Positions 1-19,551 of a DNA stretch of 33,748 nucleotides are shown piece after piece (position 1 is the stretch's first letter; every line of letters begins with the position of its first letter). The notes under the pieces were generated by a model that ran no database searches, was not told the DNA's origin, and saw nothing but the letters and a program-made list of their open reading frames with translations. Source of the stretch: a virus; UHGV virus genome UHGV-0125592; one strand, given 5' to 3'. Both the position numbers and the translations under genes were made by a program.

Positions 1-286
1 TTGAATCGCCAGATATTCCTAGAATATGTCGGCCGGATGTAACATTGATATCGATCGTTTCTCCCGTATCAATTCTTGCATAGGATTTTCCATCAATAGT
101 TATTTCTACAAAGCATCCACCACCAGCAAACCATCCTTGATCTCGTGTAATTGTTATCACCGAGTCACCAGCCCCCTTCAGCAATACACGTTCAGATGGT
201 ACTTGTTTTGCAACGGTAGAATTCACCGCCGTGGTTGAACACCCAGCAACGCTAAGCGCAATTAGAAGCAGCAAAGTCTTTTTCAT
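1..286 (-). CDS. Putative lipoprotein, 5' part only (gene runs off the left edge)
   Basis: Reverse-strand ATG at 286 translates MKKTLLLLIALSVAGCSTTAV..., a signal peptide with lipobox LSVAGC; the frame stays open to position 1. Not in the ORF track because it is truncated by the window edge. Confidence 0.5.
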   Translation of the reverse strand, partial: MKKTLLLLIALSVAGCSTTAVNSTVAKQVPSERVLLKGAGDSVITITRDQGWFAGGGCFVEITIDGKSYARIDTGETIDINVTSGRHILGISGDS

Positions 287-340
287 ATCCCTATCACCTT
301 TGATTAATTTGCCAAAAGAGTAGCAGGGATCCGGTAACGA

Positions 341-363
341 CAAAACCCGCAGTTAAGCGGGTT
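341..363 (-). terminator. Intrinsic terminator downstream of the Rha antirepressor gene
   Basis: On the minus strand AACCCGC-TTAACT-GCGGGTT (7-bp stem) is followed by TTTTGTCGTT. Confidence 0.4.
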
Positions 364-396: not shown

Positions 397-1128
397 TTAT
401 GCCACATCAGCGCCATGAATCAGATGGCGTAACGCATCAATCCCACTAGTGTTGTACCGGAACGTCTCAACTTGCTTACTGGAGTGAGCTGATTTATCCA
501 TCACAAAAATACCGTACTCGTCAGATTTGAGATTATTAGCATTTGCAACGCGCCCGATTTTCTGTGCTGACACACCAAGCATTTCACCTACTTCACTGGC
601 GCTATGATAGTGTTCTTCCACTTTTGGTAACGGTAGTAACTCAATACCAGCAGCATCGTTTACTGCTCGTGCCATAGCCGTTTGTTTGGCTATATCACCT
701 AACTTCGGCATAAACGATAACGCCAGGCTCATTGCCTCCACTTCCATCTTTATTGCGCGCGCTCTGCGATATTCCGGCAGGTGTGATGCTGATTTCTGCG
801 GAAGCATCTCTCCTGACTCAAGCTGACGCCAGCGTTTAGCCACTTTATGGCGTAGCGGAATGTTATAACCAGTCATCAGGGTCATGGTAAGGTCATGATC
901 AAGTTTAATTTCATCAATGACTACACGACCATTGTAAACCCGGCGCTTGATAGAAAACTCTTTAGAATCATAATCATCCAATTCTGGATAATGAAGATTT
1001 AGAGCTTCTAGCATTACCTCAATGTCACGAACTACGTGTGATGGATTCTTGCCAGTCAGCTTGGCAAGCTCGTGATGTGACATCATAGTGACAACAGATC
1101 GCGCATTTGCTACAGTTTGTTTAGTCAT
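397..1128 (-). CDS. Rha-family phage regulatory protein / antirepressor
   Basis: 243-aa ORF; N-terminus (MSHHELAKLTGKNPSHVVRDIEVMLEAL) matches the Rha-family pattern; AGGAA ribosome-binding site upstream of the ATG. Confidence 0.7.
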   Translation of the reverse strand: MTKQTVANARSVVTMMSHHELAKLTGKNPSHVVRDIEVMLEALNLHYPELDDYDSKEFSIKRRVYNGRVVIDEIKLDHDLTMTLMTGYNIPLRHKVAKRWRQLESGEMLPQKSASHLPEYRRARAIKMEVEAMSLALSFMPKLGDIAKQTAMARAVNDAAGIELLPLPKVEEHYHSASEVGEMLGVSAQKIGRVANANNLKSDEYGIFVMDKSAHSSKQVETFRYNTSGIDALRHLIHGADVA

Positions 1129-1161
1129 ATACGTTCCTACACGTTAATAGACTTCAATAGA

Positions 1162-1193
1162 CCGCCAGCAGCCACTGGCGGTTTTTCTTTTTG
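1162..1193 (+). terminator. Plus-strand intrinsic terminator between the two antirepressor genes (possible end of a Sar-like antisense RNA)
   Basis: CCGCCAG-CAGCCA-CTGGCGG hairpin followed by TTTTTCTTTTT on the plus strand, i.e. opposite to the flanking minus-strand genes. Confidence 0.45.
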
Positions 1194-1206: not shown

Positions 1207-1872
1207 TCAATAAATCCTCGGTCGTTCTCCCTGTTGAAGTTGTTGATCAGCATATTCCTTAATCATGTACATGAAGGCAGCTCCGTCATTAAAACGATCA
1301 TGAAGGCGACCAGCCAAAGGTGACTCTATTGCCCTCAAAGCCGGTTCTATCTGGTTAAACCATGCTTCACACATAACCTCGAAATAATCGAACATTGCGT
1401 TTGCATTGTGGGCGTGTATTTCTCTATTGCTGAGCATCTTCGATGCTGGAATATTTATAGACACCTCACGATCCAGAATATCTAACACCCAGCGTCGGAA
1501 TTCTTTAGCAACCGGAGTTCTCGCAAACATAGCGACCATGTGTGCACCACGTAGAGAAAAAACTCGAGTTTCTTGATGCCCACTAGGGGTGGTCAACTTG
1601 ACCACCCTCGACATTCTTTGCGTAAATTCATCAGAATGCCTTGAATAGATGCGCTGCACAGCTTTATCGTCCGCATACTGTAATGCATAACCAATCTGAT
1701 TAGCGGTCAGCCAAATGCCATCTTTATCAGAAATGCTCTGCAGAGATACGTCTTGGAAGTTAAGCTCAATTTTGGTTACACTATTCATGTCGATATCTCC
1801 TTTGCCGGATTTGTTCGATAAGAGGCCCAGAGTGTTAGCGCACTTCTGGGCTTCGCTACTTTTAACGACCAT
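1207..1872 (-). CDS. ant: Bro-N domain antirepressor (Ant-like)
   Basis: 221-aa ORF with Bro-N-like segment (WLTANQIGYALQY...VFSLRGAHMVAMFARTPVAKEFRRWVLDIL); start overlaps the stop of the upstream arc-like gene; AAGAGG ribosome-binding site. Confidence 0.7.
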   Translation of the reverse strand: MVVKSSEAQKCANTLGLLSNKSGKGDIDMNSVTKIELNFQDVSLQSISDKDGIWLTANQIGYALQYADDKAVQRIYSRHSDEFTQRMSRVVKLTTPSGHQETRVFSLRGAHMVAMFARTPVAKEFRRWVLDILDREVSINIPASKMLSNREIHAHNANAMFDYFEVMCEAWFNQIEPALRAIESPLAGRLHDRFNDGAAFMYMIKEYADQQLQQGERPRIY

Positions 1873-2035
1873 TTTCTACCTCTTCCCTCACTCCTTTTGC
1901 CAATAAACGAACAATCGCGGAGTTTAGTGAAATGCAGTCCATTTCCGCCAATCTCCTGATATCCTGGTCTAATCTCGCTGGTAAGCGAAGGTTACGTTTA
2001 ATGTTCTTTCTTTCTGTATAAAGTGAATCTTTCAT
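1862..2035 (-). CDS. arc: Arc-like ribbon-helix-helix repressor
   Basis: 57-aa product from ATG at 2035 (MKDSLYTERKNIKRNLRLPARLDQDIRRLAE...), small basic RHH pattern like P22 Arc; AAGGAG 7 nt upstream; co-directional with and overlapping ant. Confidence 0.65.
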   Translation of the reverse strand: MKDSLYTERKNIKRNLRLPARLDQDIRRLAEMDCISLNSAIVRLLAKGVREEVENGR

Positions 2036-2144: not shown

Positions 2145-2501
2145 ATGAGCAAGTACCCGAGCCAAATGCAAGACAAATTCAACCTACGCTTCCCTGACGG
2201 AATGCGTGACGTTATAGCTGAGCGAGCAAAGCGCAATGGAAGATCCATGAATTCAGAGATAGTGGATATAATTGCAAATGCTATATCACAACCGGCTTTA
2301 GCACAGGAGGGTATTGAATTCATTCTTGGCCTAACGGAGCCCGAAGAATTTGCAAAGCTAAACGATAAAGAGAAGGAAAAAGTTCAGGGAGTTCTAACAG
2401 ATGCCGCGGCCATAATGGCAAGAAACATAGAAACTGAAAGCGCCAATTTAAGGAAAATATTATTTCTACTATCCCAAGGCAGCCCCCTTCAGAAGGAGTG
2501 A
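2145..2501 (+). CDS. mnt: Mnt-like ribbon-helix-helix repressor
   Basis: N-terminus QMQDKFNLRFPDGMRDVIAERAKRNGRSMNSEIVDIIANAI resembles the Arc/Mnt DNA-binding motif (P22 Arc: MPQFNLRWPREVLDLVRKVAEENGRSVNSEIYQRV); longer C-terminal tail as in Mnt; divergent from arc-ant. AGGTGA ribosome-binding site. Confidence 0.65.
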   Translation: MSKYPSQMQDKFNLRFPDGMRDVIAERAKRNGRSMNSEIVDIIANAISQPALAQEGIEFILGLTEPEEFAKLNDKEKEKVQGVLTDAAAIMARNIETESANLRKILFLLSQGSPLQKE

Positions 2502-19263: not shown

Positions 19264-19294
19264 GAAATAGAAAAGGCCACGCAAATGCGCAGCC
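19264..19294 (-). terminator. Intrinsic terminator (tR'-like), copy A, upstream of the holin
   Basis: Minus-strand transcript GGCUGCGC-AUUU-GCGUGGCC forms an 8-bp stem using two G-U wobble pairs, followed by UUUUCUAUUU; forms only in the minus-strand transcript. Confidence 0.55.
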
Positions 19295-19352
19295 TGTAAC
19301 CAGAAATCAATATTGTCTTTACATCAATTTTTCTTAAGGTTAAATTCTTCTG

Positions 19353-19428
19353 ACAAGTTGATGAAAGACAACTTGAATATTAGCTATTTGTTCTCTGTTA
19401 TGCCCGCAACCCAATGCGGGCTTTTTTT
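19353..19428 (+). ncRNA. Candidate small RNA (about 75 nt) antisense to the late transcript
   Basis: Promoter-like TTTACA (19318-19323), 17-bp spacer, TAAATT (19341-19346); internal hairpin CAAGTTG-ATGAAAGA-CAACTTG; strong terminator GCCCGCA-ACCCAA-TGCGGGC + TTTTTTT (19402-19428); no ORF. Confidence 0.4.
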
Positions 19429-19551
19429 CGCCCTGCTAAAAGTTCCACCGTTGTGAGCCTTTTTGCTATGCAATAATGGATGCGTGGTGCCGGGTGTCTC
19501 CCGGTGATCCTTTGGCTGACAACCCATGCCTCACGAACATTTCACAACGGG

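Follow-up and report, generated by a model that had tools for sequence, protein, structure and literature searches.

A putative antisense RNA gene at the ant-rha junction of immI-type regions in Enterobacterales prophages

The virus genome UHGV-0125592, 33,748 nucleotides long, is called the window here. Its first 2.5 kb form an immI-type region resembling that of phage P22, with the gene order mnt-arc-ant-rha. Lambda-like tail genes of the same strand are located upstream of this region. The genes, and the terminator that follows the last of them, are listed here.

397 to 1128, minus strand: Rha-like, antirepressor-like gene of 243 amino acids, the target gene of this study; its Shine-Dalgarno sequence AGGA is the complement of 1135 to 1138
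1207 to 1788, minus strand: ant, the upstream gene, with a BRO-N domain and a P22AR C-terminal domain
1862 to 2035, minus strand: arc-like gene
2145 to 2501, plus strand: divergent mnt-like gene of the Arc family
363 to 344, minus strand: terminator after the Rha-like gene

The mnt-like gene is recognized by the Pfam Arc profile with 64.6 bits. The arc-like gene matches the same profile weakly (17.2 bits), and its placement mirrors that in the P22 immI region. In the Rha-like protein, the Pfam profile Phage_pRha matches residues 16 to 104 with 21.6 bits, which is below the cut-off, and 49.7 bits are reached in close relatives of the protein. For the C-terminal ~100 residues of the Rha-like protein (397 to ~750, minus strand; ...HYHSASEVGEMLGVSAQKIGRVANANNLKSDEYGIF...FRYNTSGIDALRHLIHGADVA) no Pfam match was found. 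This part also stands behind Rha, BRO-N, and an unassigned N-terminal domain at other loci, and it looks like an uncharacterized antirepressor C-terminal domain. The divergent control region of mnt and arc contains a 22-nt imperfect inverted repeat (2046 to 2067 and 2093 to 2114, 82% complementary), inside which AAGTTAACACC occurs twice as exact direct copies (2056 to 2066 and 2074 to 2084, 18 bp apart). These copies and the inverted repeat at 2046 to 2114 are candidate Arc/Mnt operators.

A first-pass annotation of this DNA had pointed to a strong plus-strand terminator between the two minus-strand genes ant and rha and had suggested that a Sar-like RNA ends there, which would be antisense to the start region (ribosome-binding site and ATG) of the Rha-like gene. 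Our follow-up of this suggestion led to the following elements, all of which are on the plus strand.

1088 to 1093, plus strand: -35 element GTGACA, within codons 12 to 14 of the Rha-like gene
1108 to 1116, plus strand: extended -10 element TGcTACAGT, 17 bp past the -35 element
1123, plus strand: predicted transcription start, an A 7 nt past the -10 element, placed by conservation
1123 to 1192, plus strand: predicted antisense RNA of ~70 nt, from its fold, the family model, and the lengths in the family
1123 to 1153, plus strand: predicted 5' stem-loop, with the start-codon complement CAT (1126 to 1128) in the stem and the anti-Shine-Dalgarno sequence UCCU (1135 to 1138) in the apical loop
1159 to 1192, plus strand: intrinsic terminator, with the stem 1159 to 1168/1175 to 1184, the loop 1169 to 1174, and the T-tract 1182 to 1192

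The terminator has the sequence that had been described. Its core stem on the plus strand is formed by ACCGCCAG (1161 to 1168) pairing with CTGGCGGT (1175 to 1182) around the loop CAGCCA. Two further pairs lengthen the stem to 1159 to 1184, giving 10 pairs with G-C in 6 of them, and 1182 to 1192 read TTTTTCTTTTT. This is the GC-rich stem-loop directly followed by a U-tract of an intrinsic (Rho-independent) terminator. The hairpin is located between the ATG of the Rha-like gene (1126 to 1128, minus strand) and the ant stop codon (1207 to 1209), both genes being on the minus strand; it is ~30 nt from the start of the Rha-like gene and 14 to 25 nt from the ant stop codon, which lies 14 nt past the T-tract. 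The first 20 kb of the window contain 28 terminator-like sites, and this one ranks at the top. Folded alone, the hairpin has a predicted energy of -16.4 kcal/mol (z = -4.85), and equal stability was seen in none of 200 shuffles. The hairpin is beyond chance, for which the main argument is its conservation, as the same hairpin and T-tract are found in the same place in more than 100 distinct related loci.

The hairpin could instead be the terminator of the ant transcript, possibly a bidirectional one, with no regulatory RNA ending there. Its short distance past the ant stop codon and the fact that a stable hairpin forms on the mRNA strand too are in favor of such a role. However, after the stem the mRNA strand reads UCUAUUGAAG, which is not a U-tract, and the terminator is therefore predicted to act in the plus direction only. 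Across the family, the mean on the mRNA strand is 2.1 T within 8 nt past the stem, and the long T-run is always on the plus strand; the U-tract on the minus strand that a bidirectional terminator has after its stem is found neither in the window nor in the family. In addition, the Rha-like gene starts 32 nt past the hairpin, and because no minus-strand promoter-like site was found within 1129 to 1300, it would rely on read-through. A terminator of ant would also leave a conserved plus-strand promoter at a fixed distance unexplained. We consider it quite unlikely that the hairpin serves ant, and the merely bidirectional terminator, which the first-pass annotation had named as its own counter-explanation, did not hold up.

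We looked for relatives of the element with several kinds of queries. The stem together with five T's retrieved 62 loci from IMG/VR, with the same context in all but one. A second search, with the start-codon and Shine-Dalgarno segment only, added 19 loci, and hairpin and T-run were present in 18 of the 18 that had enough sequence. A scan with the promoter only gave 131 distinct regions, 117 of which have a hairpin and T-run 63 to 79 nt past the predicted start; most of the regions lacking the hairpin encode unrelated N-termini and are apparently chance hits. The architecture of promoter, A start, complement of the Shine-Dalgarno sequence and AUG, and terminator is common to more than 100 distinct homologous loci in Enterobacterales prophages, and the upstream gene belongs to one and the same protein cluster at 85 of the 108 family loci. 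Because the sequences are related and mosaic, these counts are not counts of independent events. With a strict composite pattern, 20 loci were found in 19 species-representative genomes. All but one of these loci are in Enterobacterales, including Yersinia, Serratia, Pantoea, Rahnella, Citrobacter, Raoultella, and Buttiauxella. The exception (L101) is in record CACSKA010000002.1, labelled Chryseobacterium sp. 18061 (Bacteroidota); it is a typical enterobacterial copy of the element, and the record is likely a case of contamination or mislabelling. The element is also present in SPN3UB-group Salmonella phages, in several Klebsiella phages, in a few plasmid records, and in only 1 of 5,426 complete E. 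coli genomes. Its carriers include the Klebsiella prophage ST11-VIM1phi8.1 and E. coli AMR2684.

Covariation of the terminator stem was scored in a promoter-anchored set, the rows of which were chosen for possessing a hairpin. The 22 distinct arm pairs, such as CCGCCAG/CTGGCGG, CCGATAG/CTATCGG, CCAGCAG/CTGCTGG, and CCGTCAG/CTGACGG, show compensatory double changes at 6 of the 8 stem pairs. The covariation score was 0.607, compared with 0.247 in shuffles, and was matched by none of 500 shuffles. As the rows were preselected, the stem pairing of 98% is partly built in, which does not apply to the compensatory changes. RNAalifold found almost no covariation in our first alignment (A1), because the A1 sequences had been selected by their stem sequence; the promoter-anchored set was needed for this purpose.

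The promoter was examined in a promoter-blind set of 57 distinct start regions, which were retrieved via the terminator or the Shine-Dalgarno region and anchored on the start codon. In this set, conservation reaches 90% or more only at TGACA (-37 to -33 relative to the start codon; 91 to 93%), TG (-18/-17; 93/98%), TA (-15/-14; 100/93%), the last T of the -10 element (-10; 96%), and an A 7 nt later (-3). At this position, the predicted start, 93% of the promoter-blind sequences have an A, as do 112 of 114 distinct family members. Between the conserved positions the bases vary freely among the 57 sequences, and the spacing is exactly 17 bp. There are 13 sequence variants, all of which keep TGnTAnnnT. 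In the window, the promoter hexamers match the consensus at only 9 of 12 positions, and the composite motif occurs once, compared with 0.04 occurrences expected. On comparative grounds, the candidate has what characterizes a sigma-70 extended -10 promoter (a TTGACA-like -35 element, a spacer of 17 ± 1 bp, a TGnTATAAT-like -10 element, and conservation of the critical bases), and the conserved pattern reads as the footprint of such a promoter, the spacer being 17 bp and the start a purine.

Since the promoter sits in codons 5 to 14 of the target gene, codon usage provides an internal control. Although codon 12 stands for 11 different amino acids, every sequence has NNT there. Val13 is encoded by GTC in 51 of 52 sequences, and at codon 6 GTA, TTA, ATA, or CTA is used. 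Flanking codons vary, with TCT, TCA, TCG, and TCC for Ser11 and ACT, ACC, and ACG for Thr14; synonymous positions are fixed within the promoter hexamers and free next to them. These observations bear on the view that the region is conserved for a functional peptide at the N-terminus, or as a linker for recombination at the boundary between modules, and that the promoter-like pattern is incidental and silent. The leader does encode a recognizable motif, M-T-K-x-x-[VLI]-A-x-x-x-S-x-V-T, and the region contains a clear mosaic joint. A linker would, however, be conserved uniformly, whereas here only the promoter-critical bases are conserved and the intervening ones are free. A peptide constraint would free the synonymous sites, whereas third positions are invariant exactly where the amino acid varies, in codons 12 and 6. 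A peptide or linker with a silent promoter-like pattern is therefore, in our judgment, very unlikely, and we keep to a functional promoter as the preferred reading of the conserved bases.

The genes downstream of the element encode modular antirepressor-like proteins, in which a 14-residue leader is followed by the first domain. This domain is Rha, KilA-N, ORF6N, BRO-N, or unassigned, and the same leader, untranslated region, and terminator are found before all five. At loci with another domain, identity to the window drops to ~0.25 directly beyond the -35 element; the conserved unit therefore extends exactly from promoter to terminator. The comparison argues that the feature being maintained is a nucleic-acid element and no protein feature. 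A frequent N-terminal domain, DKTIDSQSLLEMVNQARKQCGE... (residues ~15 to 110), occupies the Rha/KilA-N position at L002, L004, L010, L015, and other loci. It is present in 44 of the 110 classified family members and has no Pfam match.

Four promoter-blind sequences do not have the motif at the standard place, and all of them still have a promoter. In three, the same promoter is displaced by 18 nt by a six-codon insertion, and in the fourth the sequence is TTGACT-16-GATAAT. The six-codon insertion is seen in Salmonella phage SPN3UB (L001) and at L005 and L039, with the promoter TCGACA-17-TGCTACATT 18 nt deeper in the gene; in this variant the predicted RNA gains ~18 nt in length and would be antisense to codons 1 to ~7. 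At L003, the second gene is of the BRO-N type with an MNSI... N-terminus resembling that of P22 ant. The antisense promoter of this locus is the near-consensus TTGACT-16-GATAAT in a Psar-like placement, joined to a terminator of the new type, and the locus may be a transitional form linking the Sar layout to the new cassette.

Two other sites were considered as promoters in the window. The first-pass annotation had proposed TTGGCA (1061 to 1066), which together with CATAGT makes a site with 9 of 12 consensus positions, yet it is not conserved in the relatives and gives way to GTGACA-17-TGcTACAGT as the real candidate. TTGATA-16-CATAAT at 947 to 974 looks stronger and was rejected, as its region is not conserved even among Rha-class relatives.

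Given the promoter at GTGACA (1088 to 1093) and TGcTACAGT (1108 to 1116), the predicted RNA is ~70 nt long. The first-pass annotation had expected 60 to 130 nt, and lengths up to 130 nt are not borne out; across the family, the predicted length is 63 to 79 nt. The predicted RNA (1123 to 1192) folds into two hairpins with -21.1 kcal/mol (z = -4.95), and none of 200 shuffles was equally stable. A covariance model of the family gives 86 bits at 1123 to 1192, as expected with this sequence in the model, and has no other match in the window with E < 0.1. The plus strand of 1123 to 1192 is complementary to the AUG (1126 to 1128), the Shine-Dalgarno sequence (1135 to 1138), and the entire ant-rha spacer. 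The 5' hairpin is weak in the window (-4.7 kcal/mol, z = -1.66). Of 15 sequence clusters, 14 are predicted to have a similar hairpin, the mean z across clusters being -1.37, and this hairpin is predicted to form equally on the mRNA strand. These predictions come from folding each cluster separately; MAFFT did not align the different sequence types. They make a 5' stem-loop plausible.

We propose, with a probability of about 75%, that 1088 to 1192 on the plus strand form a gene complete in itself, whose product is a cis-antisense RNA of ~70 nt that blocks translation of the Rha-like gene. The sequence elements, their position-specific conservation, the covariation of the stem, and the complementarity are observed features of the locus and its relatives, from which we infer that the RNA is produced, where its exact ends lie, and that it represses translation. 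The extended -10 sigma-70 promoter in codons 5 to 14 of the Rha-like gene would fire outward from A1123. The transcript would run across the complement of the Rha-like AUG and Shine-Dalgarno sequence and end at the terminator after the ant stop codon. Its complementarity to the polycistronic mRNA, made from Pant or by late read-through, would be perfect over the ant-rha intercistronic region. Pairing would probably start via the anti-Shine-Dalgarno loop of the 5' hairpin, cover the ribosome-binding site, and stop translation of the second antirepressor-like protein; the RNA-mRNA duplex may then be cleaved. The idea of a Sar-like RNA antisense to the ribosome-binding site and start codon is supported by the comparative analysis, in which promoter, complementarity, directional terminator, and length point the same way.

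The same arrangement of a promoter and terminator might also work mainly by transcriptional interference, that is, by collision with or occlusion of Pant or late transcription, with pairing being secondary. The promoter does face incoming transcription, and its geometry is that of Psar and Pant in P22. Interference has no need, however, for full complementarity to the Shine-Dalgarno sequence and AUG or for an anti-Shine-Dalgarno sequence at or near the loop in most clusters, and diffusible regulators typically are short transcripts with efficient termination. As the main mode of action, interference seems unlikely to us, and it may operate together with the RNA pairing that we favor.

An RNA made from this gene could furthermore have its main targets in trans, among host mRNAs or in the corresponding gene of another phage, co-resident or superinfecting. 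The terminator hairpin, poly-U tail, and A/U-rich linker are as in small RNAs bound by Hfq or ProQ, and there are ~15 types of RNA 5' sequence, which are shuffled relative to the N-domain classes of the proteins and in this resemble specificity classes. However, the only full complementarity that can be demonstrated is to its own locus, and targets that lie mainly in trans are highly improbable. Returning to the cis-antisense RNA, a wider conjecture is that promoter, leader, 5' untranslated region, and terminator make up a portable, self-contained antisense module for the control of translation initiation that can be joined by recombination to any antirepressor-type domain, with the ~15 5' types as specificity classes of RNA cross-immunity. 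We hold this to be doubtful. If it were true, a resident prophage would shut off, in trans, the second antirepressor of phages with the same RNA type, whether these are incoming or co-resident; this would amount to an RNA-based layer of cross-immunity among Enterobacterales prophages, comparable to the c4 heteroimmunity of P1 and P7.

The relation of the new RNA to Sar was examined with covariance models. No match reaching the gathering score was found with Rfam over the whole window. A permissive search with the Sar family RF00262 revealed one further element.

1790 to 1857, plus strand: weak canonical Sar homolog, antisense to the arc-ant spacer (25.8 bits, E = 0.015)

Because 25.8 bits is below the RF00262 gathering score of 43, routine annotation would miss this Sar-like gene. 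Its candidate promoter is TTGGAA (1753 to 1758) with TACACT (1777 to 1782) at a spacing of 18 bp, and the RNA would span ~1789 to 1860. It folds into two hairpins (z = -4.48), in a shape nearly that of the new RNA. Of five other loci that were examined, three (L010, L011, and L024) have a similar sar match on the opposite side of ant from the new element. With the Sar match at the arc-ant junction, ant would be flanked by two antisense RNA genes, and each of the two antirepressor-type immI genes would have its own antisense brake. The first-pass annotation had envisaged one Sar-like RNA in this region; that view stands for the rha element and has to be corrected by the second one, the sar match already present between arc and ant.

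At 1123 to 1192, RF00262 gave no match even at E values up to 10 in a 1.3-kb search, and the new RNA does not reach the 43 bits for membership in this family. The model built from the new family, in turn, had no match on P22 sar or on the Sar homolog of the window. Homology of the new RNA to Sar is thus rejected by covariance models in both directions, and because neither model links the two, the analogy is one of architecture alone. The only Rfam family overlapping the new RNA was suhB/mmgR (15.1 bits, E = 4.5), a weak match mainly to the terminator hairpin and U-tract. We conclude that the new RNA is an analog of Sar, with no homology to it that can be detected.

The architectural likeness is extensive. 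P22 Sar and the new RNA are both cis-antisense in the mnt-arc-ant region, complementary to a ribosome-binding site, and composed of two hairpins, and their lengths are 68 to 69 nt and, as predicted, ~70 nt. Like Sar, the new RNA is encoded opposite the ribosome-binding site of an antirepressor gene in immI, with the promoter in the first codons of its target and the terminator at the end of the upstream gene. According to the GenBank annotation of P22, the sar promoter is within the opening codons of ant, and the sar terminator directly adjoins the arc stop codon; the window has this layout one gene further, and the target is not the ant gene directly downstream of arc but the Rha-like gene after ant. 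The -10 element is TGcTAnnnT in both, TGcTATACT in P22 and TGcTACAGT in the window. The start of the new RNA is 3 nt within the coding sequence, so that the AUG is covered too, whereas P22 Sar starts just outside. Unlike P22 Sar, the new RNA has a terminator with a canonical GC stem and long U-tract, and its cassette is fused to five N-domain families.

Other phage and plasmid RNAs share single traits with the new RNA. Like it, c4 RNA of P1 and P7 (immI, icd-ant) is a small RNA that pairs near a ribosome-binding site against antirepressor synthesis. It is processed from its target's own transcript, not encoded opposite to it, and acts at partially complementary sites. Sequence variants of c4 define heteroimmunity (review PMC12197685). 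Lambda OOP, P22 sas, and P22 a23 are likewise short phage cis-antisense RNAs that have a separate promoter and an intrinsic terminator in or next to a regulatory gene; they differ in their targets (cII, sieB, and gene 23) and sites of action and are encoded outside immI. In CopA/CopT and Sok/hok, as predicted for the new RNA, the interacting sequence is in a hairpin loop and the target bears a complementary loop. These systems are unrelated to it in sequence and biology, and the loop-loop step proposed here comes from weak folding predictions.

Antirepressors decide whether a prophage stays silent and mediate cross-talk between prophages. If the new RNA is real, many immI-type regions of Enterobacterales, among them those of Klebsiella, Citrobacter, Salmonella, Yersinia, Serratia, and Pantoea, hold two antirepressor-type genes with an antisense RNA each. 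The locus would also be a clear case of a promoter embedded in a coding sequence that constrains synonymous sites, and the compact element of ~105 bp is potentially reusable as a portable translational off-switch. The mechanism itself, an antisense block of an antirepressor, is unsurprising to a specialist.

The new RNA family is outside Rfam and without annotation in the genome records examined; it is widespread and apparently unannotated, with an unusually clear comparative signature. A 2025 review of phage small RNAs names only Sar, c4, and 24B_1 as RNAs regulating antirepressors (PMC12197685). Full-text searches of the literature outside subscription journals gave no second immI antisense RNA and no match to the hairpin sequence, and nothing relevant on prophage antisense RNAs with mapped start sites. 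In the tables that we searched of a transcriptome study covering the ST64B prophage of Salmonella strain D23580 (PMC7067206), no gene of this prophage is annotated as Arc-like and no noncoding RNA could be assigned to a locus of this kind; STMMW_20121 adjoins the holin gene.

Two minor observations concern other parts of the window. In the stretch 1 to 363 (minus strand), the terminator at 363 to 344 is followed by a lipoprotein gene that starts at 284 to 286 and leaves the window (MKKTLLLLIALSVAGC...); it may be a moron-type accessory gene. At 19270 to 19430, strong terminator-like hairpins form a convergent pair, 19295 to 19274 on the minus strand and 19402 to 19421 on the plus strand, with promoter-like sites between and around them at 19318 to 19346 (plus strand) and 19356 to 19327 (minus strand).
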